From: Bacteroidetes bacterium GWA2_40_15
GTDB taxonomy: Bacteria > Bacteroidota > Bacteroidia > Bacteroidales > VadinHA17
Reading direction: 5' to 3'
Length of the DNA: 64,000 nt
Assembly (NCBI GenBank): GCA_001768195.1
Contig: MENI01000112.1
Span: forward strand, 80,261 to 144,260
Below, piece by piece: positions 27,476-46,051 of this stretch; position 1 is the first letter of the stretch, and each line of letters opens with the position of its first letter. Position numbers and translations under genes: made by a program. A model generated the notes under the pieces. The model was not told the DNA's origin, searched no databases, and saw only the letters and a program-made list of their open reading frames with translations.

Positions 27476-30400
27476 TTACCACCTGAAAAACCGATACGGA
27501 TCATCCCATTCTTCCGGTTCATCCAGGTATAAACCGCTTAGCCAGCGTTTTTCATTTTTATCTTTATCAACAGGACTATTGAGCCGGGAGAGAAAATCAG
27601 TGGATGAGTGTATGCCCAGGTTTCCCAGTAAGCGGTTAACCAGAAATGAAGAACGGCGAAAGGTCTGTTTTACATTGTGCTGCTGATTACTATAATCAAA
27701 ATGCCATGGAACAAGCTGGCAAAAAACAGCATTCGCCTCTTCTGCTTTTGCAAGTACTCCGTTTCCGATTATTGAGGCGCCTGATGAAACAAGAGATATT
27801 TCCCTGGGTGAACGGTTATGCACATCAGCCGGGCCGATTCCGGCAAAGGGAGACTTTGTGTCAAATGGTCCGAAGGAAGCAGCAATATGTTCTTCTTTTT
27901 TCATAACAATTCCCGGAAACAATAAACTTATTTCCGGCTGGTCAATACCAATGGTCATCAAACGGCCCCCTGCTTTGATAAACTTGCCGATAGACTTATT
28001 ATTTTCAGTCAGTTGCTGCGTGCTGCCTGGTCCAACGATCAGTACCTGATCAGGCAATATTTTTCCTCCTTTGAATTCAGTTATTTTTATGGAAGCTTTT
28101 TCAAGATAAGCTTTACCGGTCTGCTCGCCGGTATAAAGTGCCTTCAAGTTTGGTGAGGGACTCCATGCTGATATATATGATATAATATTCCAGGTCAGCC
28201 GATCAGCAGCCGGATCTGTTTCGGTACGGCCTGTTACATCCATCTGACAGAATATTACAAGGCCTTTACCTTCACGATACTCCATCAACGGACTGTACTG
28301 AAGGCTGTAACCTCCGTCAATTAAGGGAAGAAAATTACTGCAGGCCGGTTTTTCGACCAGTACGCTGGCTACATTTCCACGATTACCGCATCGCCATGCT
28401 CTGGTAACCGGAATATCGCACCACTTGAATTCAGGAGCTCCGGAGAGCCTTCCGGGCAGAATTGTTGCCTCTCCATGCCAGTCATGCAGCTGGTCCTCAG
28501 TGAGGCCCTCAAGAGCCGGATGGTCGGAAATGCGTCTGAATACCTGGCGCAATCCATATTCCTGTACTCGAAAACCGAAGCGTTGTTCAAGCACTTCAGA
28601 AGTCTGTTCAAACACTATTACCTTCAATCCATTGCGAACAGCAGTACCATCAAATCCGGGGCCATCTGCTTTTAACGCTCCCTTTCCTATAATTAATATC
28701 TCAGTATCACTCAGACCAGTCAGGTTTTCAACCGATTTATACCCGATTCCAAATCTGTTCAGAAGTAGAGATGTGTCGCCTATTGGATCGAACAAGGCTA
28801 TTCCGGAGGTGATTTTAATCTGACTTCTTTCAGGCAGAACATTTATTTCAAAGCTATCGGTGAGTGATTTACTTTTACCTGCCAGAAAGACAGCTTTTAT
28901 CTCATACTTACCAGGATTAAGGTTTTTGGGAAGATCAAAATTAAGCAGAATACGTTCCTGCATTCCTGTGGAAAGATTAATAGTCAGTCTTCCTGTTATT
29001 GGCTGAGACAGGTTTAGAACCCAGTTGCAATCACATTGAATTTTTTCGCGGGAATTGTTAATTATTATCAGTTGTTTTTCAAATGACTGGCCCTGAAGGA
29101 AGTTATGAGACTTGTCAGTAAAAGCTTCCGCTTTGCCTCCGATATATGCCGTAAGAGGACCATGGTTATCAGTTATGGCTTTAGCAGCTACAGTTGCTTC
29201 CCAGTCTGACATTTCATATCCCATATCCATTCGTTCCCGCTGCTGGTTTACAATGTCAGGGCTTAATCCCGGTCTCTGCAGGTTTTCCCAGTCGGTTTTG
29301 AAAGATTTTGGTCCTTTTTTCACATTCTTCAGCAACCTCCAGTATATTGTATAGTGCCACATGGCATTAACTGCCGATACTCCCCATGTTCGAAATGCGC
29401 GCCAGTTCGATGCAAAGTGTTTCGCAAATACCTGGTTACGTTCATCGAGGAGAACAGAGTCGAAAGAGAAGGGATATTCTGATCGTCCCCATATTTCTCC
29501 TGCTCTGAATTTTTCAGCTTCCCACCGGAGATTGGCTTTTTCATATTCACTTATCTTATAGACATAATCTCCGATAAATTGCGCATTCCATTCAGCGAGA
29601 CAGAATTCCCATGGTACTTTTGCACTGCCAAAATCCCTTACCCCTTTATACCAGCCTCGGTATACTCCGTAATCCCATGTAAAAGGTGTTGAAAATTCTA
29701 CTAGCATGGCAGGTTTTTCACCCTTTGTGGCCCAGTGTCCGAACCATTCATTCATCTCCTGTATTGGTACCCAGTTAGCATAAAAATTGCATACATACAT
29801 TGAGCCCAGGTTCCCGGAATGGTGATGATATACAATCCGGAACGGATCAAGATTCCGGATGATAGCTTCAGCGCGCAGAGCCTTTGCAACATTATTGAGC
29901 GACCATTGGGAATCATCCCTGGTGTGTCCGTCTATCAGGTCCGGATTCATGTCCTGGCTATATCCCGTAGCATTATGGCTGGTGGAATAAAACACCACCG
30001 AGGGGTGATTCCGGGCCACATTAGTGTAGAAAGCAGCATGGTGGGCATAACCGTTGTTCACATCTGCATCGGGTTTATCCCATTCATACTGTGAAAAATG
30101 GGGTTGTGACAATGCGATCAGCATCCCTGTATCATCAGCAGCTCTCAGAATTTCGGCAAAACTGACGTGAGTTCCCGGTTCACAGCCATAATTGTGAGTG
30201 TAAACAAAGTTAATGCCGGAGTTCTTAAGCCGTTTAAGACTCTCTCTGGCACCGTCATAGTTTGCGAAAGCAGCCCCATATTGTGCATTATCCAGGGGAA
30301 TGCAGGATAACCAGATCCGACTTCCATTCAGATAAAAATCGCGGCCGTCGATCCGGAACTCACGGTATCCGAACCGGACCGGAATTGCAACATCCAGCTC

Positions 30401-31465
30401 TTTCCCGGCTGTATTAAGAAGAGTGATATGAGCCAGGTACATATTTTGTGGTGTATGGATATCCCATAATTTATCAGGTATCCATTTTTCAGTAAAGGTA
30501 AAACTACCGGCTTTAAGGTCATTTTCATTAAAGGTTTTCCCGGTGAATTCTGCAATTTTAATTCCATTATCAGTGATTGTGATCCGAAGGTTATATCTCG
30601 TGCCGGTAACAAGGTTTAATAATCCGGTTTTAAACGTGATTTCCTGCCTGGTGACTGAAGTGTCAATTGTCATAGTATCAATAATCGGTCCTGCCGGAAT
30701 ACCGCTGAGATACACATCACCGCAGAGGCCTCGTCGTTCAACAGTTGCCTCAATCTGACGGGCCATGTTACTGTCATTGTATGCCGTTATAACGTCTTTC
30801 AGGGGAAGGGCTTTTACTTTGATACTCAGCCTGTACTTAAGGCCTGGTTTGCAGAAAGATGTCAGATCAAGCTCCCCGCCGGGAAACCATAATTCACCGG
30901 CTTTATGACCATCGATATATATTATTGCATTTGAATTCAGATACTCCATCGCCAGTATAACACGCCGGCCGCCCCAGGTATCCGGGATACTTATGTCACG
31001 CTGGTACCAGGCAACTGTAATATTTTCGGGCAGGTTTTTATTCCATTCAGGGTGCACAAACAGTGTCTGATTTTCATTCCTGCTGCCAATCCTGTTGTGC
31101 CATTGCCCCGGTACCTTGAAATAGCCCCATCCAGAACCTGGTATATCATCAGAACTCAGGTCTCCGGGCTGCCATTGCCAGAGACCATTTATAGATATAC
31201 GCTCCCTGGTTGGTGTCTTCTCGCGGAATGCCTTATTAATGTCCCATATGGCTTTTACCGGGTCCGGCAAACTGATTGAATCCTGAATTCTCTCCTCAGT
31301 TGATGCCGTCAGATCAAATGTATTATCCTCTGCAATTATTCCCTTATTACCGATAAAAAGTAAAGGTTTGTACATGCCGATGCCTGTTATGGCCATTCCC
31401 ACGGACTTAAGAAAAGTCCTCCTGGTTTTGAATGTATTCCGGATTTTTGTTTTGTTGATCTTCAT
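27476..31465 (-). CDS. Tat-exported glycoside hydrolase family 2-like protein with a large uncharacterised C-terminal half
   Basis: 1329 aa. Tat signal TRRTFLKSVGMAITG. GH2 sugar-binding N-domain pattern (INGLWQWQPG, VAWYQRDISIPDTWGGRRVIL, IYIDGHKAGE). Confidence 0.7.
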   Translation of the reverse strand: MKINKTKIRNTFKTRRTFLKSVGMAITGIGMYKPLLFIGNKGIIAEDNTFDLTASTEERIQDSISLPDPVKAIWDINKAFREKTPTRERISINGLWQWQPGDLSSDDIPGSGWGYFKVPGQWHNRIGSRNENQTLFVHPEWNKNLPENITVAWYQRDISIPDTWGGRRVILAMEYLNSNAIIYIDGHKAGELWFPGGELDLTSFCKPGLKYRLSIKVKALPLKDVITAYNDSNMARQIEATVERRGLCGDVYLSGIPAGPIIDTMTIDTSVTRQEITFKTGLLNLVTGTRYNLRITITDNGIKIAEFTGKTFNENDLKAGSFTFTEKWIPDKLWDIHTPQNMYLAHITLLNTAGKELDVAIPVRFGYREFRIDGRDFYLNGSRIWLSCIPLDNAQYGAAFANYDGARESLKRLKNSGINFVYTHNYGCEPGTHVSFAEILRAADDTGMLIALSQPHFSQYEWDKPDADVNNGYAHHAAFYTNVARNHPSVVFYSTSHNATGYSQDMNPDLIDGHTRDDSQWSLNNVAKALRAEAIIRNLDPFRIVYHHHSGNLGSMYVCNFYANWVPIQEMNEWFGHWATKGEKPAMLVEFSTPFTWDYGVYRGWYKGVRDFGSAKVPWEFCLAEWNAQFIGDYVYKISEYEKANLRWEAEKFRAGEIWGRSEYPFSFDSVLLDERNQVFAKHFASNWRAFRTWGVSAVNAMWHYTIYWRLLKNVKKGPKSFKTDWENLQRPGLSPDIVNQQRERMDMGYEMSDWEATVAAKAITDNHGPLTAYIGGKAEAFTDKSHNFLQGQSFEKQLIIINNSREKIQCDCNWVLNLSQPITGRLTINLSTGMQERILLNFDLPKNLNPGKYEIKAVFLAGKSKSLTDSFEINVLPERSQIKITSGIALFDPIGDTSLLLNRFGIGYKSVENLTGLSDTEILIIGKGALKADGPGFDGTAVRNGLKVIVFEQTSEVLEQRFGFRVQEYGLRQVFRRISDHPALEGLTEDQLHDWHGEATILPGRLSGAPEFKWCDIPVTRAWRCGNRGNVASVLVEKPACSNFLPLIDGGYSLQYSPLMEYREGKGLVIFCQMDVTGRTETDPAADRLTWNIISYISAWSPSPNLKALYTGEQTGKAYLEKASIKITEFKGGKILPDQVLIVGPGSTQQLTENNKSIGKFIKAGGRLMTIGIDQPEISLLFPGIVMKKEEHIAASFGPFDTKSPFAGIGPADVHNRSPREISLVSSGASIIGNGVLAKAEEANAVFCQLVPWHFDYSNQQHNVKQTFRRSSFLVNRLLGNLGIHSSTDFLSRLNSPVDKDKNEKRWLSGLYLDEPEEWDDPYRFFRW

Positions 31466-31648: not shown

Positions 31649-32473
31649 TCATAATCCTATAATTCTTTTTGCATTTCCCGATCTGAGGAGTTCCTTCGTC
31701 GGTTCATCCGCTTCAGAATCGTTCATTGACTCTATCCGTAAGTGTCCCGACAGATAATCAAGTACAGGCGAATGTGAGCCATGAGCAAACTTTTCTTTAC
31801 CATATATTTTAATAAGTTCCGGCATATCAGACATCGACCGGCCTGAGGTATCAAATACAAGATCTGCCTTTTTGATCAAAGAAAGTTCCTCATCACTGAC
31901 TCTGAATCCATTTGCTACATTCACTATTATGTATTTTGCATCGGGTACCTCTTTTATCAGAGGTATGATATTCTTCATCTGCCATTCCAGAGTTATGATA
32001 TCATATTTAACTTCCCCGGGTTCAAATTTCGGTATGTCAAGCCATGACTTCTGCCTGCTGTCGACCATGCGGATATCTATTGCAACCGGTAATCCCCGGC
32101 CGCGGGCCATCTTTACAAGCTCAATAAATGCCGGGTCATTTATTTCATAATCGTGATACTGAGGATACACTCTGAGCCCCTTCATTCCCATATTCTCAGT
32201 ACATGTTTTAAAATCATCTTTCCAACCGGCATAGACCGGGTTTATTACTGCAAAGGGAATGAACCGGTCGCTGAACCGAGTGTCTGATTTCAGCTCAGCA
32301 TAGAGTTCCTCATTTGCCGACTGGGTATTCTTATAGAAGACCCCATTAAGGTTACTTATCACTGAGACATCCACGCCAAACCTGTTCATCCTTTCGAGAA
32401 GTTTTGAACAGGTATTGTACTGGAGCTTCTTAAATGGCCAGTGGCCAACATAGGCATTGATATCAAGCAACAT
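31649..32473 (-). CDS. amidohydrolase-2-type metal-dependent TIM-barrel hydrolase (no signal peptide)
   Basis: 274 aa beginning MLLDINAYVGHWPF. Overlaps the upstream paralog by 11 nt. Confidence 0.65.
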   Translation of the reverse strand: MLLDINAYVGHWPFKKLQYNTCSKLLERMNRFGVDVSVISNLNGVFYKNTQSANEELYAELKSDTRFSDRFIPFAVINPVYAGWKDDFKTCTENMGMKGLRVYPQYHDYEINDPAFIELVKMARGRGLPVAIDIRMVDSRQKSWLDIPKFEPGEVKYDIITLEWQMKNIIPLIKEVPDAKYIIVNVANGFRVSDEELSLIKKADLVFDTSGRSMSDMPELIKIYGKEKFAHGSHSPVLDYLSGHLRIESMNDSEADEPTKELLRSGNAKRIIGL

Positions 32474-33395
32474 GGTGGCCCCCTTTCTTTAATACATTAT
32501 TATAATTGTCAAAAAAGATCTTTTTCTTCTGTTCCTCAGTTGCATTTGACGCCAGTACCCTCCCTACACCATGGTGATAAGCTCCGTCGGTACCAAAGAA
32601 TATCCTCTCATCACCGAGATGTCTTATGGCGAAATCTACTATGTTTTCTTCATTGTTGCTTCCTCCGGTATCGACATAAATATTGGGACACTCCTTTAGT
32701 ATTTTACATTCATATTCCCAATCGGCTCCGCCTCCGATATGAGCAAAATGGAATATTGCCTCAGGGTACCTTTTTGCAGCATCAACCATATCTTCGGGAA
32801 GAGTAGTATTTGCAAACCTTCCGACATCATACTTCATCCGGTAGCCGCCCATTCCCAGCTGGCAGAATGTGTGCATATAAACTATCATCTTATAATCAAT
32901 TAGCTTTTCGATTATCGGATAATAGACGGGGTCATTGAGCTTTGCCTGGGTATAACCCTTGAATCCTGCCATGCCCATATCAGCACACCTTTTTATTTCC
33001 TCCATCGATTCCCTATTAAACAGCGGGTTCAGAGTAAAAAAGCCGATGAACCTGTCAGGATATTTCTTTACGGCATTTAAAACGATATTGTTATTCTTTA
33101 CAGCCTCTTCAGGTCCCTCAGGTTCATTTCCTGAGAAATTAGTTATCGGCTTGGATATCTGTAACTTCTCTATCCCAAGCCTGTCTGCAATTTCAAGCTG
33201 TTTCTCAAGATCAACATCAGGGTGTGCATGGGAATCGATCTTGCGATATTTCATCACATCCTTCATAATGTCATATGAGGAAACTACCTGCTCTTTTCCT
33301 GAGGAACAGCCGGCCATATTACTACCAAGGATAATTCCTGTAGCAGTAAGTGAAGTATTTGCGAGGAATTTTCTCCGGTTGATCTTAATTGACAT
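32463..33395 (-). CDS. Tat-lipoprotein amidohydrolase-family TIM-barrel hydrolase
   Basis: 310 aa. INRRKFLANTSLTATGIILGSNMAGCSSG is a Tat motif plus lipobox. Metal-ligand-like IDSHAHP and FAHIGG. Confidence 0.7.
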   Translation of the reverse strand: MSIKINRRKFLANTSLTATGIILGSNMAGCSSGKEQVVSSYDIMKDVMKYRKIDSHAHPDVDLEKQLEIADRLGIEKLQISKPITNFSGNEPEGPEEAVKNNNIVLNAVKKYPDRFIGFFTLNPLFNRESMEEIKRCADMGMAGFKGYTQAKLNDPVYYPIIEKLIDYKMIVYMHTFCQLGMGGYRMKYDVGRFANTTLPEDMVDAAKRYPEAIFHFAHIGGGADWEYECKILKECPNIYVDTGGSNNEENIVDFAIRHLGDERIFFGTDGAYHHGVGRVLASNATEEQKKKIFFDNYNNVLKKGGHHVA

Positions 33396-33517
33396 GGCAT
33401 TAATATTTTGGAGTTATGAGAATAAATATATAACTTTTATTTCTGTTTCTTAGCTATTCTGGAGTTTCAACAAAATTTAATCAATCCGGGAATAATGAAC
33501 CCCCAATAAGAGAGTTA

Positions 33518-34522
33518 TTATAGCGCAGGCAGCAAATTTTCTCTTAAAACAGGGTGTCTTTCGGCTGCCATCAATACAATCCGTTTTGCCATCTGGCCGT
33601 ATGAATAATTAGTCATTTCTGTTGCCAGGGAAAAGCTGGTATCAATGCTTATATCGTTATTGGGATTGATATCGAGGAGGTAGAGCTCATCATCGCGCAG
33701 GCGGAAATCGAATCGGGCATAGTCGAGGCATCCGATTCCTTTCCACGTTGTAAGGACTTTCTTTTCCAGATCATTAAGCAGTTTTTTATCAATCGGAGCA
33801 GGTATAAGGGTTTCGATTTTTTCGTAATGTTCCGAGCCGGGGACAAACTTTGAGTCGTACGTACATATTCTTTTCCTGGCTTCGCAGAAAGCTGAAAAAT
33901 CCATTTCTACCGGAGGCAACATTTCGGGTGGTTCATTGTTCCATACCGACACATGGAATTCGCGGCCGTCAATAAAATCTTCGACCATTGCAGGTTGATT
34001 TAATTCATTTTTCACCAGCAGAATCTGTTCCTGAAGGGAAAATGTATCGAAAACCACAGAATTTTCGGTGATTGTAAGACTGCAGTGTTCACGTGAAGGT
34101 TTTACAATAGCAGGAAAAAGGTTCCAGCCAGCTGCCTCTTCCGGAGTAAGCACTGCTCCGTAAGGAACTCTGATGCCCAGCGAACCAAGTACTTCTTTTA
34201 CCTTCTGTTTATCGTAGCTCAGTTCTATCACCTCAGGTGTGTTTCCGGTATAAGTGAATCCTTTATTTTCTATGATTTCCAGAACTCTTCTTTCGCTGTA
34301 CCGGATACCAGGAAGGGTTTCACAGAGGTTGAAAATAATGGTATTATCAGGGTTGTATTTATCGAGTATTGTTTTCAGATCCGGATCGCTCAGTTCTTCA
34401 AGATATGTTTCAATTCCTTCGTCTTTAAGCGATTTAAAGAGCATCTTAGTGGAGTTCCGGGCATCGCTGATTTCATTTCTATCCCAGGCAGGATCAAGAT
34501 CGTATAGAATAAGAACCTTCAT
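33518..34522 (-). CDS. ATP-grasp enzyme, D-alanine--D-alanine-ligase-like
   Basis: 334 aa. Typical Ddl-like layout: N-terminal Rossmann-like half, then KVKEVLGSLGIRVPYG, AIVKPSREHCS and a YLLDINPN C-terminal motif. Confidence 0.75.
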   Translation of the reverse strand: MKVLILYDLDPAWDRNEISDARNSTKMLFKSLKDEGIETYLEELSDPDLKTILDKYNPDNTIIFNLCETLPGIRYSERRVLEIIENKGFTYTGNTPEVIELSYDKQKVKEVLGSLGIRVPYGAVLTPEEAAGWNLFPAIVKPSREHCSLTITENSVVFDTFSLQEQILLVKNELNQPAMVEDFIDGREFHVSVWNNEPPEMLPPVEMDFSAFCEARKRICTYDSKFVPGSEHYEKIETLIPAPIDKKLLNDLEKKVLTTWKGIGCLDYARFDFRLRDDELYLLDINPNNDISIDTSFSLATEMTNYSYGQMAKRIVLMAAERHPVLRENLLPAL

Positions 34523-35024
34523 AAAAAATGTTTTTTGCTAAGCTAATGTAATTGGTTGAAAAAGTAAGGTATGAAGGGAAAATTGCAAAACTTAATTTGG
34601 GTTTATGGATAAAGAAGATAACCCATGCATCGCTGACGCATGCAGATTTCTTCTGTTACGGAATCATGTTAACAGAGTAGTGAGGCTACGGAGTTAAGAA
34701 TTCGGGGTTTCTATGCCAACGCTTGACGTCTATAAGAGGTTGTCCCGAATATTTAACATTTTCGGGACATTTTGAGTAACCATTTAATTTGATCCCCTAA
34801 TTCGGGTATTACTGCAAACATTTGCCACTAAATCCAGTTTACTGGCATTTGTTTGAAAATAGTAACAATGGCTATTTAGTGTTATTTTCACCAAATTATC
34901 ATATAATGTACAAAAGCCGGACAGAGTAGAAATATCCACAAAAGTTGCTGAAAAAATATTCCGGAAAAGAAATTTTGATAGCTAAAATGTCTTTCTGAAA
35001 TTTTTTTATAAGAAATTATAATAA

Positions 35025-36008
35025 TTATGAAAGTGACTCTTTAACCTGATTGTTAAGGAACCGTTCGAATAAATGTTTTGAAACACCGTTAGTCAAGGTT
35101 ATTGTTTTGCAATTACTTGGATAAGTAATTCGAAATTCTATATGAAAGTTTAAAATTTCGGATGTCTTATTTTTATAAAAACCCGAGCACTCTATATCCC
35201 CGAATGGAGAGTAGCGTGTAACTTTCAATAAATTTGCCTGAAAATGGAGATCAAACCATGATCCTGTCCCTTCGCCACTAAGCCATTGGGCATTTTCAGG
35301 TATTAGTGTGTTTCTTGAGGGTTGAGGGGAGGTCGATAATAATAGATCTTTATCAAGTTTGCAGAATGGGGAAAAGGGTTCGTTATTAAGTAATTTGGGC
35401 AAAATAATCTTATGTTTAAGTGAATTGACATTATTCATAGGTGTGGGAGTGAGAGGAACAAAATATTCAAGTTTGATTTTTTGCCATATCGGAGGATTTC
35501 CGGCCAAAATTGCTGTATTGACAAAGCGTGAACAATTACTCCCTTTATAACGAAACGGTCCGTAGGGCCAGTGATGTGCTTCCTGCATCTGAATTGCCTT
35601 ATTATAAGCTGCTTTGAAATCAATTGAGCAATAGGATGCGTAAATATTTCCTTCTCCATGACAGGCAGGATTGAGTTGCAATTCATTCAAAATATCCTCA
35701 TAATTTTCGATTGTACTACCATCTGCTGATATCACAGGATTTGTCTTCATTTCAAGATCGTGGTCGGTTATGGCACCTCTTACTCTGCCATGATCAAAAG
35801 GCGAGTGGTAACGTCCAAAATCAAAATAATTACATTTTGTATTTGAGATATCTATCAGTACAAGCGCTGCATGACCAGCCTTGTAATAGTTATTCTTGTT
35901 AATTCCAAGTAACTGAGTGATTGGTTCATACCAGCCCCCTGATTGCTTGCAATAGGTCTCAGGCCAGGCTATAGCTATCGCAAATCCTGATTTTCTGTTT
36001 TCGCTCAT
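35025..36008 (-). CDS. hypothetical protein with a possible permuted NlpC/P60-LRAT-like thiol-enzyme core
   Basis: 327 aa. Its start overlaps the decarboxylase stop by 4 nt (ATGA). KAGHAALVLID (His) followed about 110 aa later by GSNCSRFVN, which resembles the NCEHFV Cys motif of LRAT/H-rev107 enzymes. The fold call is weak. Confidence 0.45.
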   Translation of the reverse strand: MSENRKSGFAIAIAWPETYCKQSGGWYEPITQLLGINKNNYYKAGHAALVLIDISNTKCNYFDFGRYHSPFDHGRVRGAITDHDLEMKTNPVISADGSTIENYEDILNELQLNPACHGEGNIYASYCSIDFKAAYNKAIQMQEAHHWPYGPFRYKGSNCSRFVNTAILAGNPPIWQKIKLEYFVPLTPTPMNNVNSLKHKIILPKLLNNEPFSPFCKLDKDLLLSTSPQPSRNTLIPENAQWLSGEGTGSWFDLHFQANLLKVTRYSPFGDIECSGFYKNKTSEILNFHIEFRITYPSNCKTITLTNGVSKHLFERFLNNQVKESLS

Positions 36009-37420
36009 AAAACCTGCTTATTATTTATCATGCTTGTGGCAGTTTCCGCCAATTGATTAAAAAACAAATCAATGTCATCTTCCTGCACATCAGAATTTGC
36101 GATAACGAGCCTTAATGCAAGTGTGTTCCCAATATACCCGTAGTTTACAATAGACTTGCCGCTCTTACGTAAATTTTCACGTAGTTCCAGATTAAATGCA
36201 TTCAGGTCAAAATCCCCTGATGGCACAAACCTGAAGCAAACAGTAAATGATTGACGAGGGATAAGCAATTCGAGGTTTGGATGGGTTTTTACTATATCTT
36301 CAGCATACTTTGCCATTGCAACTGAATTATCTAAACGATCCCTGTATCCTTTTTTGCCATAATATTTCCAGGCGAACCATAACTTTACTGCATCCACACG
36401 TCGTCCGCACTGGATTGATTTTTTACCAAGATCCTCCACAGCATCAATATCATGAAATATATAGTCAGTATTAATATCTGTAATATTCTGATAAAGAGTA
36501 GATTTTCTATTAACCAGTAGAGCAGAGCATATCAGAGGTATATTCATTAGTTTATGAGGGTTCCAGGCAAATGAATCGGTCTTTTCGATTCCCTTCATCA
36601 GATGCCGGTGCTTTTCACTGAGAATAAGAGAACCACCAAACGACCCATCAGCATGAAGCCATACATTATACTTCTTACAGATTTCTGCCATTTCATCAAT
36701 CGGGTCGTATGCTCCTGATAAAGTGGTAGCACACGTTGCTGCTACGAAAAAAGGAAGTTCACCCCTTGATACAGATTCACTCAATTTCTTTTCGAGTTCT
36801 TCAGGTATTAATCTGCCATTTTTATCTGCCTTGACTTTAATAACATTTTTAGATCCGATTCCCAGAACATTTGCAGCTGTTTCAAATGAATAATGAGCCT
36901 GTTCATTTATAAATGCTTTTAATTTCAGATTATGATCATATCCTTCGAAACGTCCTTCAGGGAATACTCTGTTTCGTGCAGAAAGCATTGCCACAAGATT
37001 GGCATTACTTCCACCGGTAACAAATATCCCGTCACCTGACTTATAACCGGCATAGCTGTTCATCAGGTTGATCATCTCTTTCTCAATCATGGTCGCAACC
37101 GGGGCAACCTCATATGTATACATTGAAGTATTGGCTACAACTGTAAAAACCTCCCCAAGAAAGGCCGGGAAATTAAAGCCGGAATATAACTGGTTCAGAA
37201 ACTGCTTATTTCCTGTTCTGACGGAATAATCAAGATATTTCTCAATGTATTCTGTAAACTTAGTTTGTGAAGCACTTTCTTCATCAACCGGTAAACTAAA
37301 TATCTCTGATAATTCACCGGGTGTTTTGAATTTCACGACAGGAGACGTATTGTCGTCATTTGAGTTAATATATTTTTCTACCCTTTCAAAGGAATACCGT
37401 AAAAGATCTTTGTTATTCAT
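36005..37420 (-). CDS. group II PLP-dependent decarboxylase, GAD/CSAD-like (candidate cysteine sulfinate decarboxylase)
   Basis: 471 aa. FLNQLYSGFNFPAFLGEVFTVVANTSMYTYEVAPV aligns by eye with animal CSAD/GAD. PLP lysine in NPHKLMN, plus WLHADGSFGG. Confidence 0.85.
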   Translation of the reverse strand: MNNKDLLRYSFERVEKYINSNDDNTSPVVKFKTPGELSEIFSLPVDEESASQTKFTEYIEKYLDYSVRTGNKQFLNQLYSGFNFPAFLGEVFTVVANTSMYTYEVAPVATMIEKEMINLMNSYAGYKSGDGIFVTGGSNANLVAMLSARNRVFPEGRFEGYDHNLKLKAFINEQAHYSFETAANVLGIGSKNVIKVKADKNGRLIPEELEKKLSESVSRGELPFFVAATCATTLSGAYDPIDEMAEICKKYNVWLHADGSFGGSLILSEKHRHLMKGIEKTDSFAWNPHKLMNIPLICSALLVNRKSTLYQNITDINTDYIFHDIDAVEDLGKKSIQCGRRVDAVKLWFAWKYYGKKGYRDRLDNSVAMAKYAEDIVKTHPNLELLIPRQSFTVCFRFVPSGDFDLNAFNLELRENLRKSGKSIVNYGYIGNTLALRLVIANSDVQEDDIDLFFNQLAETATSMINNKQVL

Positions 37421-37432
37421 TTGTTGTAATGA

Positions 37433-38143
37433 TTATCTGTAATATGCATTAATGTCTTTTTCAAACGTGCTTATGGTCTTTAACACGTCGTACCTGTTAT
37501 TTCTTAAATAATAAGGTTTGATAAGTTCAAAATAGTCAATGAGGGTTTCATCCGTATAGGTATCATAAAACTCTTCTTCCGTTTTAAGTGTTTCAGCCAT
37601 ATTCAAAAATGCAGGGCCATTAGTAGTTGCAAGCACTTTATGTTCCGGCAGAAAAACTTTTTCTCTATTGAGACTATCGTTTAAGTTTTTGTTGGAACCA
37701 TAGATATGAAGCGTCATAAAACCGGTTTTGCCTGAGTTGCCCATCATGTGAGTCAGGTCACCACAAACTGCAGCAGTCTGACCTTTTTCAAAAATATCTT
37801 TTCGTGATAATTTCAAATTGCCATACTCTGTTTCATATAATCTATGGGTAGCATTTCCAAAGAAATATACACCGCCCCATTCAGTTTCACCGTGGTTATG
37901 TATTGCGGTGAAGTCGCCAGGATCCCATGTCATTAACAGTATTCTGAATTTTTCACTTTCATAAAGTAATCTCCGGCCATAGCTTTCTGCACCCGTATGA
38001 TTGAATATGTTATAGGGGAATAGGGCATCTTCTGAAAGACCTGCTCTTACCATAACTTCAGATACAATTTCGTTAGTTACGTCTGTTACACTGTTAAGTT
38101 CGCTGGCTAAATTGACTATGCAATCTGGTAATTGATAATTCAT
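37433..38143 (-). CDS. cysteine dioxygenase type I-like cupin (Arg-type)
   Basis: 236 aa. SYGRRLLYESEKFRILLMTWDPGDFTAIHNHG ... LTHMMGN ... LHIYG gives the 3-His iron site (HxH...H), the Y-x-R substrate-carboxylate motif and the conserved Tyr of CDO. Confidence 0.7.
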   Translation of the reverse strand: MNYQLPDCIVNLASELNSVTDVTNEIVSEVMVRAGLSEDALFPYNIFNHTGAESYGRRLLYESEKFRILLMTWDPGDFTAIHNHGETEWGGVYFFGNATHRLYETEYGNLKLSRKDIFEKGQTAAVCGDLTHMMGNSGKTGFMTLHIYGSNKNLNDSLNREKVFLPEHKVLATTNGPAFLNMAETLKTEEEFYDTYTDETLIDYFELIKPYYLRNNRYDVLKTISTFEKDINAYYR

Positions 38144-38311
38144 TGCAATTGGTTTTAAATTATTTCATCCTAACAAAATTATTTTTTAATGGCCGGATGG
38201 AGCTCACATGTTGATTTTGTTCATGCAAGTTTGTGTTTTTCGTAAAACATGCTCGGTTCATCTTTATAAGAATTGTCGGAATAATTATAAAACCTGACAA
38301 AATAGTATATA

Positions 38312-38503
38312 TTAAATTTGTTTTGAAGGACATTTTTCTGTTCCATAAGAGCAATAAACACAACAGTCTCCCTCTTTGGGTTTAATAACAGTCTTGCAAT
38401 TTTCACACTCATAAAAATACTGACATGCATCTTCCGGCATTTTTTCTTGTTTCTTATGACCACAGACTGGACAGGTTATTACAGAATATGTTTTTAAGTT
38501 CAT
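38312..38503 (-). CDS. GDCCVxC-domain small metal/thiol protein
   Basis: 63 aa. CPVCGH ... ECENC ... EGDCCVYCSYG, the eponymous motif of the GDCCVxC (seleno)protein family. All positions here are Cys, with no TGA. Confidence 0.75.
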   Translation of the reverse strand: MNLKTYSVITCPVCGHKKQEKMPEDACQYFYECENCKTVIKPKEGDCCVYCSYGTEKCPSKQI

Positions 38504-38564
38504 GGCAAATATTTTATAATGTCCTTTACAACTTAGCTTTACATTAATGTCAAGATCAAATATT

Positions 38565-39752
38565 CTACTTCAATCGTTGCAAGTGTTCAAATGAAAAATC
38601 ACCTGTTTCAATCATTTTAAGAGTTTGTTCTATTGTCGGCCTGTCACCCCAGAATGTTCCCCTGTAGCTGAACCGCACAATACCTTCTTTGTCAATAATA
38701 ACTGTTGTCGGTCTATTTATGTATTCTGAATGAACAGCAAAGGCGAGGGGATCAGCTCCGTACATTGCTCCAATAGCTCCTGCACGGTCGAGGAGGTGAG
38801 GCCACCATATTTTCTCAGTATATGCTTTGTGAAAAGACTTTTTTGCAAACCAGTAGGAGGGATCAAGCTCTTTTCCAATCATTACTCTGCCCCGGTACCT
38901 GTCGTGTGCTTCAACTGTAAAAACCTGTACGCCCTCTTTTTCAAATTCACTCTGTATCTCCATCAGATCCTGAAATTCACCATGGCAAACAGGACACCAG
39001 TCGGCGAAAACCCAGATCAGAACTACCCACTTTTCATTTCGGAACTGACCTAATTTCCATTCTTTTCCTTCCGTATCTTCCAACTGAAAATCGGGAGCTA
39101 TGTTTCCTGTATGAACAGAATTAAAAGTCGATTCATCCAGAGAGAGAAAGGCAGAAAGCTGTTTATCCGTTGTTCCCATTTTTTTCTCAATCTGATAAAT
39201 TGCCAGCTCACACTGGTGACGTACATCTCGTGAAGGATCACTCGTTTGTTTGTTGCGAAGCAATCCGAGCGAACTCTTCGATTCAATTTGTCCGAGTGCA
39301 ATGACAGCCTGGCTGCGCACCATAGTATTTTCATCCTGCCGGACAATCTGTTCCAGACTGTTGATTGCATCGTTAGATTTTAGAATTCCAAGAGCCATGG
39401 CACAAACCTGCCTGACATACACTGAATTGTCAGCAAGGCCAATCACTATTTCCTTCATATTTTTATTTCCTGCACGCACCAAATCCCTGACAGCCAATAA
39501 GCGAACCTGCCAGTCGTCATTGTCCATATCGGCAATACCAGCCACATTTAAAGAGCGGTCTAATGTCATTGAGTTGTCTTCATTCAGGGGATTAAAATCG
39601 TGTGTTTTTACTCTTTCAAGCACATTTGGAACACTTGTATTATAAATTCTATTTTCTGTGTTGTTCTGACTAATTATGAGTGAAATCATACTGAAAAGTA
39701 TTAAAAGTACAAGCAATATTCTGAATGATCCTGAATTGGTTGATTTAATCAT
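38565..39752 (-). CDS. exported HEAT-repeat protein fused to an AhpC/TSA-type redoxin domain
   Basis: 395 aa with a signal/anchor. Four HEAT-like repeats (DWQVRLLAVRDL, SVYVRQVCAMALG, NTMVRSQAVIALG, SRDVRHQCELAI), then a thioredoxin fold with WCPVCHGEF. Confidence 0.75.
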   Translation of the reverse strand: MIKSTNSGSFRILLVLLILFSMISLIISQNNTENRIYNTSVPNVLERVKTHDFNPLNEDNSMTLDRSLNVAGIADMDNDDWQVRLLAVRDLVRAGNKNMKEIVIGLADNSVYVRQVCAMALGILKSNDAINSLEQIVRQDENTMVRSQAVIALGQIESKSSLGLLRNKQTSDPSRDVRHQCELAIYQIEKKMGTTDKQLSAFLSLDESTFNSVHTGNIAPDFQLEDTEGKEWKLGQFRNEKWVVLIWVFADWCPVCHGEFQDLMEIQSEFEKEGVQVFTVEAHDRYRGRVMIGKELDPSYWFAKKSFHKAYTEKIWWPHLLDRAGAIGAMYGADPLAFAVHSEYINRPTTVIIDKEGIVRFSYRGTFWGDRPTIEQTLKMIETGDFSFEHLQRLK

Positions 39753-39820
39753 TAGATGTGATATTAAGTTAAAAATGTAGAATATTATTCAAACCGGCAA
39801 CAAGCACCCTGCACCCGTCG

Positions 39821-40402
39821 TTACTTCAACAGTTTACTTAGTTTGGTATCTAATGCTGAACCGCGCAGGTTCTTTGCCAAAATTATTCCATTACCATCAA
39901 TAAGGAAGTTTGATGGAATGGCTTCAACTTCATAAAGTCTTGCGGCATCAGATCTCCAACCTTTAAGATCGCTTACATGACTTTCCCAGGATAGCTTATC
40001 TGATTTAATGGCACCAATCCAGCCATTTTTATCCTGGTCGAGCGAAACACTGTAAACCGTAAATCCTTTTCCACTCTTAAATGCAGCATCCTTAAAATGC
40101 TCGTATGATTTTACAAGGTTTGGATTCTCCATACGGCAGGGGGGGCACCATGACGCCCAGAAGTCAATTAACACAATCTTCCCCTTTAAGGATGAAAGCT
40201 TAACTGTCTTTCCTTCAGGAGTGTTGTATTCCATCTCAGGTGCTTTGTTGCCAATATTCAGCCCCACTGACACTTCGGTGTTAACAGGAGAAGTCTCTTC
40301 TATTATTCCCGATTCATTTCGGGGAGCGCTGTTTGCAGCGTAGAATACAGCAAAGGAGAATAATGCCGCAACACTTATTAAAGATAATTTTTTAAAATTC
40401 AT
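39821..40402 (-). CDS. TlpA/ResA-family thiol:disulfide oxidoreductase
   Basis: 193 aa with a signal peptide. FWASWCPPCRMENP. Confidence 0.85.
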   Translation of the reverse strand: MNFKKLSLISVAALFSFAVFYAANSAPRNESGIIEETSPVNTEVSVGLNIGNKAPEMEYNTPEGKTVKLSSLKGKIVLIDFWASWCPPCRMENPNLVKSYEHFKDAAFKSGKGFTVYSVSLDQDKNGWIGAIKSDKLSWESHVSDLKGWRSDAARLYEVEAIPSNFLIDGNGIILAKNLRGSALDTKLSKLLK

Positions 40403-40423
40403 GACTTTTCAATATTATATGAT

Positions 40424-40885
40424 TTAATTATAACTTTTATAATCATCAGCATAGAGAAATCTATACATATATGGATAGATTTCGCAGGCTACGCAGAATC
40501 CGAATGCACCTTCAAGGAATGAAAACAGCCCAAGTATTCCGGCAATAACTAATGAAACTGAGCTGAATGGTATCATAATCGATAATATTATCAAACCGGA
40601 AAGGATCAATCCTATTCGTGCTGCAAGGACCTTGGGAGCGGCATTAATAAAATGATCTTTTACGTGTAACCACTTAACCATGTTCTGTGATGATATTGCA
40701 ATCAGACTGTATTTTGAAAATCCGACTGACCTTAAAAAAAAGTCAATAACCAGAAATACAATTGCATAAATATTGTGAGTGACAATAAAACCAAGCAAGA
40801 GCAACACTGTTATAATTGCATTTACACGGGCAACATGTTCATTTACTTTTTTGTCAGATATGGGACATAATGCATACGTTTTCAT
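40424..40885 (-). CDS. DUF4395-like small membrane protein
   Basis: 153 aa. N-terminal CPISDKKVNEHVARVNA followed by about 4 TM helices and a C-terminal CVACE. The family name is from memory. Confidence 0.5.
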   Translation of the reverse strand: MKTYALCPISDKKVNEHVARVNAIITVLLLLGFIVTHNIYAIVFLVIDFFLRSVGFSKYSLIAISSQNMVKWLHVKDHFINAAPKVLAARIGLILSGLIILSIMIPFSSVSLVIAGILGLFSFLEGAFGFCVACEIYPYMYRFLYADDYKSYN

Positions 40886-40946
40886 AGGGCATAAGTTTTT
40901 ATCTTATAGTCGCTACTCCTTAATAATCCTGACAATTTTTTATAGA

Positions 40947-41546
40947 TTATTTAAGATTCTCAAGCACTGCCAGAAGTAATTTTGCACTTATCCTTACTTT
41001 ATAGTCGGGGTTTATATATTCAAAAGCAATAACACCATCAGGATTCACCACAAACACAGAAGGTACCGGAAGAAATCCTGTGTTTTGTCCGGCAGAATAC
41101 TCGGAAAGCATCCCGAGAGACCTTTCAGAAGCTTTGAATGCAATTCCCATTGCCTGCGCCACTGCACCGTTTCCATCAGAGTAGAGGCCATACTTAAGTT
41201 TGTTTTTCTCGCCGGAGGCAATAAGTTTTGGAGGAGCATCAGGACTGATTGCGATTAACTGGTATCCCAACTCGAGTATCTTATCCTGAATAGTCTCAAT
41301 TTCAGCTAAATGCTTGTTGCAGAATGGACACCATCCGCCACGGTAAAACAGGAGAATTGAAGGTTTACCGCCGGTAATAGTTGCAAGGGTTTCCTGTTTA
41401 CCTGCTGTTGATAAAAGTGTAATATCGGGAATTTTTTCTCCGATCAGAAGAGGCGATATATCTTCCGCCTTATCAGCGATCTGTGCGAATGAATTTAATC
41501 CGCTGATAATTGTAAAAATCCATGCTAATAATGATAATTTTTTCAT
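40947..41546 (-). CDS. exported peroxiredoxin-like redoxin (AhpC/TSA family)
   Basis: 199 aa with a signal peptide. LFYRGGWCPFCNKHL. Confidence 0.8.
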   Translation of the reverse strand: MKKLSLLAWIFTIISGLNSFAQIADKAEDISPLLIGEKIPDITLLSTAGKQETLATITGGKPSILLFYRGGWCPFCNKHLAEIETIQDKILELGYQLIAISPDAPPKLIASGEKNKLKYGLYSDGNGAVAQAMGIAFKASERSLGMLSEYSAGQNTGFLPVPSVFVVNPDGVIAFEYINPDYKVRISAKLLLAVLENLK

Positions 41547-41582
41547 CCTGATTAATTTTTAAATTTATACTATATTATAACA

Positions 41583-41594
41583 AAGCATATGCTT
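41583..41594. promoter_or_regulatory. perfect 12-bp palindrome AAGCATATGCTT, candidate TetR operator upstream of the peroxiredoxin-like gene
   Basis: Self-complementary by inspection. It lies 37-48 nt upstream of the start at 41546 and has a sibling palindrome at 42215-42226. Confidence 0.4.
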
Positions 41595-41612
41595 AGATAT
41601 ATTGCAAAAAAA

Positions 41613-42191
41613 TTATTTAAAAACTGATAATGAAACCTTAATAATGTCACGGATCTGATTACCAGGAAGTACTTTTGCACCCACTGATAATCCTTGCATA
41701 ACACCAAGAAGAAAGTTAGAGTACACATCAATATCAGTATCAGCTGAAATATCACCGGCTTCAATAGAATTCGACAATACTGTTTTAAGCATCCCTTTAA
41801 TAAACATATAATAGTTATTCAGTTCAACTGAAACTACATCATCTGCCGGATTGATTTCACCGGTACTGTTTACAACCAGGCACCCCTTGTATTTTTTACC
41901 TGTTTTCTTATGCTCCGTGAACCGGTTCAGAAAAAGTTCAAGATCCTTAAGCCTGGCTCCGGGTTTTAAAAGATCTGCATAAACATTTTTATTTACATAC
42001 TCTCTGTACTTTTTTAATGATTCAATGAAAAGATTGTGTTTATTTGAAAAACTTGAGTAAATCGAAAACTGGTTTATCCCCATCTCCTTTTCCAACATCC
42101 GAACAGACGTATTCTCATAACCATTATTCCAGAACACATGCATTGCTTTCTCAAGAACTTCATCACTATTATATAATTTATGACGGGACAT
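41613..42191 (-). CDS. TetR/AcrR-family transcriptional regulator
   Basis: 192 aa. N-terminal HTH region VLEKAMHVFWNNGYENTSVRMLEKEMGINQFSIYSSF. Confidence 0.85.
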   Translation of the reverse strand: MSRHKLYNSDEVLEKAMHVFWNNGYENTSVRMLEKEMGINQFSIYSSFSNKHNLFIESLKKYREYVNKNVYADLLKPGARLKDLELFLNRFTEHKKTGKKYKGCLVVNSTGEINPADDVVSVELNNYYMFIKGMLKTVLSNSIEAGDISADTDIDVYSNFLLGVMQGLSVGAKVLPGNQIRDIIKVSLSVFK

Positions 42192-42214
42192 ATAATTAAT
42201 TTTACTACAAAACT

Positions 42215-42226
42215 AAGCAATTGCTT
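42215..42226. promoter_or_regulatory. perfect 12-bp palindrome AAGCAATTGCTT, candidate autoregulatory TetR operator
   Basis: Self-complementary. It lies 24-35 nt upstream of the tetR start at 42191 and shares the AAGCA/TGCTT half-sites with 41583-41594. Confidence 0.45.
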
Positions 42227-42280
42227 TGATATTTCCAAAGAATTCTGAAATCAATAAGGTAATCCAACTTTTCGCTGGGT

Positions 42281-42817
42281 TTAAGGATTAATAGTTTCCA
42301 TTGCTAAATTCCCTGTACCAGGTTCTTTGCCATGAAGTTCCACTCTTGAAACGGTGGGAAGCCAGAAACTTCCGCCATTTATCTCTATAAATATCCTTGA
42401 GACCTCAACCTCTTTTTCACCTGAGATAGTAAACACCTTATAGCAATTTTCCACATTTTTCTTAAGGATAAAAGTGCGTTTATCGTATGAAACAAACTGA
42501 AAGTATATTTCATCTTCCTTTTTGAGCTCATTAAGGAATTTTATTCCATATGCATATTTCTTCTGTATCCAGGTTAAAGGTTCAACCTTGTTATTATTGG
42601 TCCTTTTTATCCAGTGAATCTCAATGGGATCTGATTTGTCAGGGTGCCCTGGCTGGTCAAAGTTGATGGAATAAATGATCTCATTGGCATCCCGGCTTCG
42701 TCCAATTTTAAATAAATCGTATTCCCAGTTATTGTATGAATTCTCCGAATTTATAAATCCGTATGAAACTGGTGCTGTAAATATCAACAGCATTATTCTG
42801 ATTAAAAATGGTTTCAT
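42281..42817 (-). CDS. hypothetical exported protein (DUF4833-like by recollection)
   Basis: 178 aa with a signal peptide. LFKIGRSRDANEIIYSIN ... IHWIKRT. Confidence 0.4.
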   Translation of the reverse strand: MKPFLIRIMLLIFTAPVSYGFINSENSYNNWEYDLFKIGRSRDANEIIYSINFDQPGHPDKSDPIEIHWIKRTNNNKVEPLTWIQKKYAYGIKFLNELKKEDEIYFQFVSYDKRTFILKKNVENCYKVFTISGEKEVEVSRIFIEINGGSFWLPTVSRVELHGKEPGTGNLAMETINP

Positions 42818-42880
42818 TTTAGTGACTTCTTACTTGAATACTGGAAACATTATCTAAAAAGGGAATATATCTAAAGCTGA

Positions 42881-43447: not shown

Positions 43448-43512
43448 GATTTCAATTTTTAAATTATAATTATTTGTTTTTACTTATTTTCTATTATTTC
43501 CATTTTTTTCTT

Positions 43513-44017: not shown

Positions 44018-44086
44018 AATTTGTTGGATAAATTTCTCTTATAGTCGTGAATTTTGTATAACCTGACATTGATTTTGTCTTTATTA

Positions 44087-46027: not shown

Positions 46028-46051
46028 TGTAAAGTGTATTCCTGATGTTGT

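Follow-up and report, generated by a model that had tools for sequence, protein, structure and literature searches.

The present analysis concerns a stretch of 64,000 nucleotides (nt) of contig MENI01000112.1 from Bacteroidetes bacterium GWA2_40_15 (hereinafter, the window) and, specifically, three consecutive genes on its minus strand that most likely comprise one transcription unit at the distal end of a thiol-redox stress island controlled by an extracytoplasmic function (ECF) sigma factor. In the order of transcription, these genes are as follows.

37433-38143, minus strand: gene 1, 236 amino acids (aa), predicted Arg-type thiol (cysteine) dioxygenase-family cupin with a conserved C-terminal extension of about 85 aa
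36005-37420, minus strand: gene 2, 471 aa, predicted group II pyridoxal phosphate (PLP)-dependent acidic-amino-acid decarboxylase of the CSAD/GADL1/GAD type, selectivity triad Tyr/Ser/Tyr
35025-36008, minus strand: gene 3, 327 aa, predicted TseH-like permuted NlpC/P60 domain (about residues 10-170) followed by a DUF6695 C-terminal beta domain (about residues 240-315)

A first-pass annotation, made by inspection of the same DNA, had described this locus as an operon of a cysteine dioxygenase, a CSAD-like decarboxylase and an orphan LRAT/NlpC-like protein. All three open reading frames (ORFs) are indeed present at the coordinates and on the strand that it gave, and every motif quoted there is found: SYGRR, AIHNHGE, LTHMMGN and TLHIYG in gene 1, NQLYSG and NTSMYTYE in gene 2, and KAGHAALVL and GSNCSRFV in gene 3. 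Read directly from the nucleotide sequence, the spacer between genes 1 and 2 is 12 nt, and the TGA of gene 2 overlaps the ATG of gene 3 as ATGA, just as had been claimed. Homologous protein clusters number 181 for gene 1 and 1066 for gene 3, gene 2 has more than 2000 matches at E<=1e-30 (a count that includes other decarboxylases), and entries 100% identical to gene 2 and to most of gene 1 exist under the name 'Bacteroidetes bacterium GWE2_41_25' (A2X05_18785 and A2X05_18790), so that all three are real genes rather than chance ORFs. None of the three proteins contains a transmembrane or signal-like segment. The GC content of the genes, 0.37-0.38, is nearer to that of the upstream island than to that of the downstream ATP-grasp gene (0.425).

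By family, gene 1 is an Arg-type thiol (cysteine) dioxygenase, with a predicted activity on L-cysteine. Its closest sequence in the PDB is the Arg-type cysteine dioxygenase (CDO) of Bacillus subtilis, YubC (3eqe, 4qm8 and 4qm9; hereinafter, BsCDO; 7e-7), in which AYGRN lies opposite the ESYGRR of gene 1, and the AIHNHG, LTHMMGN and TLHIYG motifs correspond to the iron-binding residues and the His/Tyr pair. In particular, Y55-G56-R57 of gene 1 is aligned with YGR in BsCDO and with YQQ in the 3-mercaptopropionate dioxygenase of Azotobacter, that is, gene 1 possesses the Arg as opposed to the diagnostic Gln. The three-His iron site (H86, H88 and H140 in rat CDO) is retained as H82, H84 and H132, which match the BsCDO ligands, and the Ser-His-Tyr triad (S153, H155 and Y157 in rat) takes the form T144-L-H146-I-Y148, with a conservative replacement of Ser by Thr. 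Residues S54, Y55, G56, R57, H82, H84, H132, H146 and Y148 are invariant in 93 homologues of gene 1. The AlphaFold model (predicted local distance difference test, pLDDT, 94.3) has the Cys-bound BsCDO structure 4qm9 as its top Foldseek match (template modelling score, TM, 0.80; root-mean-square deviation, rmsd, 1.9 A), and for 4qm9 and 3eqe the comparison gives E 5e-12, TM 0.76-0.81 and rmsd of about 2 A. The assignment of gene 1 to the Arg-type CDO family in the first-pass annotation thus holds on the strength of the YGR alignment, the invariant His and Tyr residues and the fold. Gene 1 is only about 19% identical to YubC, has Trp in place of Gly82 and a longer helical N-terminus, and ends in an extra strand-plus-three-helix extension. 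The partner of the Cys-Tyr cross-link (C93 in rat) is missing in gene 1, where its place is taken by Trp89, and YubC likewise lacks the cross-link cysteine; this cross-link is a feature of eukaryotic CDOs only, and bacterial CDOs do not require it.

Gene 2 is a full-length group II PLP decarboxylase (Pfam Pyridoxal_deC, PF00282, 8.7e-87). The earlier suggestion that it aligns with animal enzymes is borne out by the scores against the PDB, which amount to 336 bits for human CSAD, 334 for mouse CSAD, 323 for GADL1 and 314-316 for GAD67/65, followed by a large drop to 196 bits or less for the 2,4-diaminobutyrate (DABA)-type enzymes and, likewise, to the aromatic, tyrosine, histidine and MfnA decarboxylases. 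The alignments with the mammalian GADL1 and CSAD structures (6enz, 2jis and 6zek; 323-336 bits) cover the full length of the protein and include the PLP-binding residues, such that the PLP lysine motif NPHK and the stacking His of 'HYS' align with human CSAD; unlike these enzymes, gene 2 is bacterial, about equidistant from CSAD, GADL1 and GAD, and lacks the animal N-terminal extension. The names given to orthologues of gene 2 in the sources vary among glutamate decarboxylase, sulfinoalanine decarboxylase and DABA decarboxylase. The top NCBIfam label, 'L-2,4-diaminobutyrate decarboxylase', was rejected (210 bits versus a cut-off of 900) and is not meaningful because the solved DABA-type enzymes score far below CSAD, GADL1 and GAD.

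So which substrate could be expected for this decarboxylase? The selectivity region reads QLY...NTSMYTYE in gene 2, QLF...NTSQYTYE in human CSAD and QLY...NPSIYTYE in GADL1. We take the selectivity triad to be Phe/Ser/Tyr in CSAD and Ser/Asn/Phe in GAD, our literature check having covered the first of the three positions; the Tyr/Ser/Tyr of gene 2 then agrees with GADL1 at 3/3 positions and with CSAD at 2/3, and the exact Phe/Ser/Tyr pattern occurs in 4 of 120 homologues of gene 2. Thus, of the CSAD-like triad proposed in the first-pass annotation, the Ser, the Tyr and the aromatic character of the first site stand, whereas the full triad is that of GADL1 rather than that of CSAD. At the first position, CSAD has Phe, GADL1 has Tyr and GAD has Ser; both CSAD and GADL1 prefer cysteine sulfinate and refuse Glu, with GADL1 being more active on Asp, from which it makes beta-alanine (bioRxiv 10.1101/2020.09.25.308866). 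The aromatic first site that gene 2 shares with these two enzymes, both of which prefer cysteine sulfinate, supports cysteine sulfinate as the substrate; judging by these residues, this is the best guess, and some activity on aspartate is plausible. A homologue 70% identical to gene 2 is found in the flavobacterium Lutibacter sp. (L081:6438-9422; here and below, L numbers denote the compared loci) after a glutamate-synthase-domain (PF01645) protein, with no cupin or DUF6695 gene nearby.

Gene 3 had been presented as an orphan that matches nothing. This is not the case: it matches the TseH-like family PF25218 (1.1e-44, 152.8 bits versus a cut-off of 27; residues 10-170 over profile positions 1-161 of 167) and the DUF6695 C-terminal domain PF20405 (2e-16), and its more than 1000 homologous clusters belong almost entirely to Bacteroidales and other Bacteroidota (identity 55-81%), with homologues in 392 species-level genomes. 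The PF25218 match is present in all 88 family members that we compared. For the AlphaFold model of gene 3 (pLDDT 86, pTM 0.83), the sole significant fold match in the PDB is TseH of Vibrio cholerae (6v98; E 1.3e-5, probability 1.0, TM 0.66), a type VI effector and permuted NlpC/P60 cysteine hydrolase. A direct sequence search of the PDB gave no match for gene 3, and a profile search regained the His region of TseH only; in the family profile, G45-H46-A...G65-R66-Y67 of gene 3 lies opposite LGHAG...YGRY of TseH. His46, His68 and the stretch N158-C159-S160-R161-F162-V163 are invariant in the family; in the model, His46 opens the strand 46-53 and Cys159 opens the helix 159-169, as expected of a papain-like, circularly permuted NlpC/P60 enzyme. 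There are four further conserved cysteines, of which C20, C274 and C300 are invariant and C116 is found in at least 90% of the sequences. The C-terminal beta domain yields weak lipocalin/FABP/PH-like fold matches (probability <0.2). With no transmembrane or signal segment (the highest Kyte-Doolittle value over 19 residues is 0.60), the protein is predicted to be cytoplasmic and soluble.

The likeness to LRAT, with the His preceding the Cys, that had been noticed in the first-pass annotation is thereby upheld at the level of the superfamily. A permissive Pfam scan of the 88 members detected no LRAT, YiiX or NlpC_P60 match (E<=5), and given the lack of a direct LRAT-family match, the similarity extends no further than that level. 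Enzymes of the LRAT/PLAAT type employ, in PLAAT, a catalytic triad of the His...His...Cys form; gene 3 resembles LRAT, PLAAT (HRASLS) and the lipoprotein N-acyltransferase clade DUF4105 of Bacteroides in being a circularly permuted NlpC/P60 protein with a His...His...NCxxF-type Cys, and differs from LRAT/PLAAT in that 0/88 family members show a direct LRAT-type Pfam match and in the absence of a membrane anchor. The TseH clade (Pfam DUF6695) has been placed in a permuted group together with LRAT, YiiX, Tox-Act1 and DUF4105 (PMC12994826, 2026). This group is tied to lipid acyl transfer, its members being acyltransferases or phospholipases, with the Bacteroides N-acyltransferase clade among them; TseH itself displays phospholipase activity on liposomes, and the LRAT/PLAAT and DUF4105 enzymes form an acyl-Cys intermediate and are able to N-acylate amines (PMC12994826). 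By family, then, gene 3 is a predicted soluble acyl-Cys enzyme of the LRAT/TseH type.

The name of the Pfam family inevitably raises the question of whether gene 3 could be an antibacterial toxin similar to TseH, with neighbours that are either unrelated or provide immunity, all the more so as the contexts of the TseH clade (DUF6695) have been described as conflict-type (PMC12994826). Gene 3 shares with TseH the Pfam family, the fold, the His-before-Cys order and the GHA...GRY motif. However, it is cytoplasmic as predicted, occupies a housekeeping rather than a type VI secretion system context and adds to the TseH-like core the DUF6695 beta domain, the invariant His68 and the four conserved cysteines. 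No genes for type VI secretion (VgrG, Hcp or PAAR), immunity-like genes or other secretion genes were found, either in the window or in those related loci that were inspected, there are no PADLOC matches, and the protein has neither an export signal nor a transmembrane segment. Furthermore, in hundreds of species a family member conserved at 55-80% identity closes a housekeeping redox operon, and gene 3 has a promoter motif in common with peroxiredoxin and thioredoxin genes. A toxin or defence function is thus extremely improbable, and we exclude it for practical purposes.

We compared 80 gene 3 loci from distinct species (the counts of modules refer to 79 related loci), in most of which gene 3 terminates a conserved same-strand cassette. 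In 19 of these loci, it is preceded by the cupin and the decarboxylase (module A). Viewed from the cupin side, in 22 metagenomic loci with orthologues of gene 1 at 41% identity or more, the decarboxylase directly follows the cupin in 21 (in the remaining one, L095, which resembles L074, the next gene encodes a rhodanese-thioredoxin protein, after which the contig ends), and gene 3 is present on 13/13 cupin contigs that are long enough downstream. The three-gene block also occurs in the cultured Labilibaculum antarcticum (AP018042.1, near 4.458-4.461 Mb) with the same layout as in the window. Conservation of the block, which the earlier annotation had left to be tested, is therefore evident in many genomes and from both ends. 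A different pair, module B, stands upstream of gene 3 in 50/79 loci (for example, L002:1169-3335, L004 and L079) and consists of a DinB-family protein (168 aa) and a TANGO2/NRDE-family protein (241 aa) that begins with MCTVSY and hence is a Cys-Ntn hydrolase. Cassette B is a conserved bacterial context for TANGO2 homologues, often with its own ECF-type promoter. Searches of the PDB with the two module B proteins gave weak matches only, to a DinB-like protein and to human TANGO2. The tie between gene 3 and the cupin-decarboxylase pair is real inasmuch as the three genes are syntenic in many genomes, but it is not exclusive. Six loci contain the decarboxylase and gene 3 but no cupin (three of them end upstream at the contig boundary), and in three loci (L044, L063 and L076) neither module is directly upstream. 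The spacing within cassettes is tight: in A, about 13 nt and then an overlap; in B, overlaps, with a median of -4 nt from the TANGO2 gene to gene 3. In a neighbour-joining tree of gene 3, the A-linked and B-linked sequences interleave, and the two copies found in a single Draconibacterium metagenome-assembled genome (JTS-AC346), L059 linked to A and L079 to B, are sisters; therefore, the modules have been exchanged repeatedly beside essentially the same gene 3.

These findings bring up the main rival to the pathway that we develop below. Under this alternative, gene 3 is an autonomous anchor, a lipid enzyme (phospholipase or acyltransferase) of the stress island that would, for instance, repair or remodel oxidised membrane lipids, and the upstream pairs are interchangeable partners that share nothing with it except the promoter. 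The constancy of gene 3 next to module B, module A, the decarboxylase alone or neither, together with the interleaved tree and the sister copies in one genome, speaks for such a scenario, and the activity of TseH on liposomes (PMC12994826) as well as the lipocalin/FABP-like matches of the C-terminal domain are compatible with it. Set against this are the translational coupling of gene 3 to the preceding gene, which is kept in both cassettes (the ATGA here, the median overlap of 4 nt after TANGO2), and its invariable presence on the informative cupin contigs; gene 3 also lacks a membrane anchor, and the matches to lipid-binding folds stay below a probability of 0.2. On the whole, the anchor scenario appears possible, if somewhat unlikely.

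The decarboxylases themselves also carry a trace of the association with the cupin. The Tyr/Ser/Tyr triad and the QLY...NTSMYTYE region are kept in 19/19 cupin-linked decarboxylases, and the third-site Tyr is lost in 3/5 of the cupin-less ones with a readable motif (NTSMATYE in L061 and L068, NTSMSTYE in L075). Small as the numbers are, they suggest that the presence of the cupin co-varies with the third-site Tyr of the decarboxylase.

Several observations on the wider surroundings of these families should be recorded. The more distant cupins (seven sequences, 32-40% identity) occur in other contexts. Extended cupins of this kind in L104/L105 (6001-7981), L106 and L108, at 32-36% identity and with the catalytic residues intact, have neither the decarboxylase nor gene 3 beside them, and two of them, in L104 and L105, are directly followed by a PatB/MalY-like PLP-dependent C-S lyase. 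Near gene 3, some loci (L029, L015, L042 and others; protein clusters c21 and c17) encode an equivalog of EgtD, the L-histidine N-alpha-methyltransferase (366 bits versus a cut-off of 291), next to a triple-rhodanese protein, which together resemble an anaerobic ergothioneine (EanA/EanB-like) route; Rieske-ThDP and Rieske-glutamate-synthase-domain proteins accompany these genes.

The operon directly adjoins an island of thiol-redox genes, as annotation of the neighbouring genes confirms. This island is a 15-kb same-strand run with the ECF sigma factor at its head and genes 1-3 at its end; the intervening genes encode, in order, a CMD-domain protein, a rhodanese-thioredoxin protein, a small thioredoxin-like protein, DsbD, an OB-fold protein, YceI, DUF4833, TetR, a peroxiredoxin, DUF4395, a thioredoxin-like protein, a HEAT-peroxiredoxin and a GDCCVxC protein. 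Comparison of the intergenic regions ahead of the cassettes yielded the motif TGT(C/A)AGG-N13-16-CGAC, the TGTCAGG form of which is found 5 times in the window versus 0.03 expected. Every copy is intergenic and on the minus strand, and together they define at least five transcription units in the island (38275-49991, minus strand). The copies and the sigma factor gene are located as follows.

38275-38299, minus strand: ECF-type motif copy 1, TGTCAGGTTTTATAATTATTCCGAC, with -35 TGTCAGG, a 14-nt spacer and -10 CGAC, about 130 nt upstream of the gene 1 ATG
40909-40934, minus strand: copy 2, ahead of the DUF4395, thioredoxin-like, HEAT-peroxiredoxin and GDCCVxC genes
44044-44068, minus strand: copy 3, ahead of the OB-fold, YceI and DUF4833 genes
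46879-46903, minus strand: copy 4, ahead of a 135-aa thioredoxin-like gene and DsbD
47738-47763, minus strand: copy 5, ahead of the rhodanese-thioredoxin gene
49425-49991, minus strand: ECF sigma factor gene (Pfam Sigma70_r2 and Sigma70_r4_2)

Across the 80 loci (1.15 Mb), the two forms of the motif together amount to 120 copies, compared with about 2.7 expected, and their targets include the OB/YceI operon (26), the DinB-led cassette B (21), thioredoxins (18), a thioredoxin-like family (9), peroxiredoxins (7) and DUF4395 (4). The motif lies directly ahead of cassette A in L001; in other loci, cassette A adjoins another gene upstream on the same strand, from which a median of 19.5 nt separates it. 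Given this shared enrichment, both cassettes are members of a single conserved regulon that has an ECF-type promoter. An ECF sigma cluster is found upstream on the same strand in 19/79 related loci; in the window, no copy of the motif precedes the sigma factor gene itself. From the gene content, we infer that the adjacent sigma factor would recognise the motif and that the signal would be oxidative or thiol stress.

Two ORFs of the island deserve a comment. The stretch that separates the HEAT-peroxiredoxin gene from the promoter of gene 1 contains an unannotated ORF of 63 aa (38312-38503, minus strand), for which NCBIfam gives NF041374, 'GDCCVxC domain-containing (seleno)protein' (1.2e-29). 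Directly after the sigma factor gene comes a 448-aa ORF with a GTG start (47815-49161, minus strand), the C-terminal part of which, about 186 aa, corresponds to a stand-alone CMD/AhpD-like protein (cluster c15) of other loci. Its N-terminal part shows hydrophobic segments along with a CxxC...CxxC stretch, and the ORF may represent either a fused anti-sigma factor that senses redox state or two separate genes that ORF calling has joined. A tRNA gene (50382-50455, minus strand) is found just upstream of the sigma factor gene.

Taken together, these data are compatible with a scenario in which genes 1 and 2 form a cysteine-to-hypotaurine pair under ECF stress control and gene 3 is an acyl-Cys enzyme acting on a cysteine-derived amine. 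As a whole, we hold this reading with moderate confidence; its first part, the conversion of cysteine through cysteine sulfinate to hypotaurine, which the first-pass annotation had named as the most economical interpretation, is well supported and is kept here with two refinements, the GADL1-like triad and the stress regulon. Nothing that the first-pass annotation had named as grounds for refutation was encountered. In the first step, as the conserved active-site residues and the fold indicate, the Arg-type non-haem-iron cupin would use O2 to oxidise L-cysteine to cysteine sulfinate; in the second step, to judge by its family and its selectivity triad, the PLP decarboxylase of the CSAD/GADL1 type would release CO2 and yield hypotaurine. 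Hypotaurine is a sulfinate antioxidant and osmolyte. The host likely is an anaerobe and, when oxygen appears, the pair would therefore use up O2 together with Fenton-promoting free cysteine and make a radical scavenger. The third step, the weakest, is suggested by superfamily chemistry and gene context: the TseH/DUF6695 enzyme may form an acyl-Cys159, with the help of His46 and His68, and the acyl group may be transferred to, or hydrolysed from, a small cysteine-derived amine such as hypotaurine. Gene 3 also serves the module with the DinB-like protein and the TANGO2-like Cys-Ntn amidase; therefore, the substrate class probably is common to both modules. The TANGO2 fold is shared with bile-salt hydrolase, NAAA, acid ceramidase and isopenicillin N acyltransferase, all of them enzymes of N-acyl-amine bonds (PMC13044924). 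By analogy with these enzymes, N-acyl transfer or hydrolysis on a cysteine-derived amine would be a coherent hypothesis for the chemistry of gene 3.

A number of facts weigh against this reading. Gene 1 scores below the threshold of Pfam CDO_I (PF05995; 17.9 bits versus a cut-off of 23), although most of its orthologues carry a precomputed PF05995 match and the NCBI name 'cysteine dioxygenase family protein'. An invariant Trp89 takes the place of Cys93 in rat CDO and of Gly in BsCDO, and the conserved strand-plus-helix C-terminal extension goes beyond the known CDOs; the substrate preference of gene 1 could therefore differ. After BsCDO, the remaining top Foldseek matches of the gene 1 model are all thiol dioxygenases, namely those for 3-mercaptopropionate and ergothioneine, mammalian CDO, the mercaptosuccinate enzyme and PCO, and the ergothioneine, mercaptosuccinate and 3-mercaptopropionate dioxygenases among them have to be counted here. 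The triad of gene 2 is that of GADL1, which also decarboxylates aspartate. Three loci that are complete upstream (L061, L068 and L069) possess the decarboxylase and gene 3 yet no cupin, and a tblastn search for a hidden or degraded cupin detected none anywhere in these loci. Finally, gene 3 keeps company with a different module in 50/79 loci and stands alone in a few, so that its chemistry may be unrelated to hypotaurine.

Another alternative would be to give up the hypotaurine route, such that the cupin oxidises some other thiol (3-mercaptopropionate, mercaptosuccinate, ergothioneine or a cysteinyl conjugate) and the decarboxylase converts aspartate to beta-alanine or cysteate to taurine. The divergent features of gene 1 and its other fold matches, the triad shared with the beta-alanine-making GADL1, the cupin-less loci, the Lutibacter decarboxylase that has neither partner and the EgtD and rhodanese genes near gene 3 in some genomes all fit such a scheme. 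But the carboxylate-binding Arg of YGR, which sets Cys-specific enzymes apart from the Gln-type 3-mercaptopropionate dioxygenases, is invariant; the best fold match of gene 1 is a Cys-bound CDO; the adjacency of the cupin and the decarboxylase is almost obligate; and GADL1 itself favours cysteine sulfinate. We therefore consider this alternative unlikely. A further alternative would place gene 3 ahead of the dioxygenase, as a hydrolase that frees cysteine or a cysteine-like amine from an N-acyl, gamma-glutamyl or low-molecular-weight-thiol conjugate and so feeds module A or B. The order of the reactions is not fixed by the order of the genes, canonical NlpC/P60 and CHAP enzymes are amidases, and the TANGO2-like partner in module B is a predicted amidase as well; nevertheless, the characterised permuted members of the superfamily act on acyl esters or transfer acyl groups rather than attack peptide bonds (PMC12994826), and no conjugate-forming gene is conserved nearby, which makes this order of events very unlikely.

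Compared with the bacterial route through CDO and CSAD to taurine and hypotaurine that has reportedly been described, the pathway favoured here involves the same predicted chemistry and a similar arrangement, with a CDO homologue beside an animal-type group II decarboxylase that has non-GAD selectivity residues. It departs from that route in the GADL1-like Tyr, instead of Phe, at the first selectivity site of gene 2, in the divergence of gene 1, which represents a Bacteroidota subfamily with Trp89 and the extension of about 85 aa, in the conserved, translationally coupled third gene of the TseH/DUF6695 family, and in its inclusion in an ECF-type stress regulon of probable anaerobes. The CDO/CSAD route in bacteria is already known, albeit, to our knowledge, shown in very few prokaryotes, and automated annotation labels some of these genes. 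In the literature that we searched, we found no description of the conserved third gene, of the alternation of cassettes A and B or of the shared ECF-type promoter, none of a housekeeping context for the DUF6695 family, earlier described as conflict-associated, and nothing relevant on the synthesis of hypotaurine or N-acyl-taurine in Bacteroidota.

That many Bacteroidales from sediments and the sea, the cultured L. antarcticum among them, conserve a putatively stress-regulated CDO/CSAD operon points to a physiological role in the removal of O2 and cysteine coupled with antioxidant production. The third gene appears to be the more interesting result: a large housekeeping branch of TseH/LRAT-like proteins is coupled to either of two cassettes behind the same type of promoter, and comparison of cassettes A and B within a single organism could reveal the substrate class of both the DUF6695 proteins and the bacterial TANGO2 homologues. 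A far-reaching version of this idea would be that the DUF6695/TseH-like enzymes represent a new ECF-sigma stress pathway of anaerobic Bacteroidota that N-acylates or de-acylates cysteine-derived amines, giving N-acyl-hypotaurine- or N-acyl-taurine-type protectants. The CDO/CSAD cassette would supply hypotaurine as the amine, and in the other case the amine would be whatever the DinB/TANGO2 cassette produces. This proposal is a long shot, but if true, the bacterial TANGO2 homologue would act on the same class of N-acyl-amine substrates and would thereby open a practicable way to study what human TANGO2 does, which is disputed.

Downstream of gene 3 lies an AT-rich intergenic region of about 500 nt (34523-35024), in which no intrinsic terminator can be clearly made out immediately beyond the stop codon of gene 3. 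A structured RNA in this region was considered and rejected: it has no Rfam match, the only Rfam match in the window being the tRNA. Beyond the gap, at 31649-34522 on the minus strand, there are genes for a Ddl-like ATP-grasp ligase (33518-34522) and two Amidohydro_2 proteins. The possibility that these three genes provide further, carnosine-synthase-like steps of the pathway was rejected in view of the 500-nt gap and the higher GC content; among the 80 loci, an ATP-grasp gene is found near gene 3 in one only, 8 kb off, and the three genes show no synteny with gene 3 elsewhere. The amidohydrolase genes are followed, at 27476-31465 on the minus strand, by a gene for a 1329-aa protein with a weak match to the sugar-binding domain of GH2.

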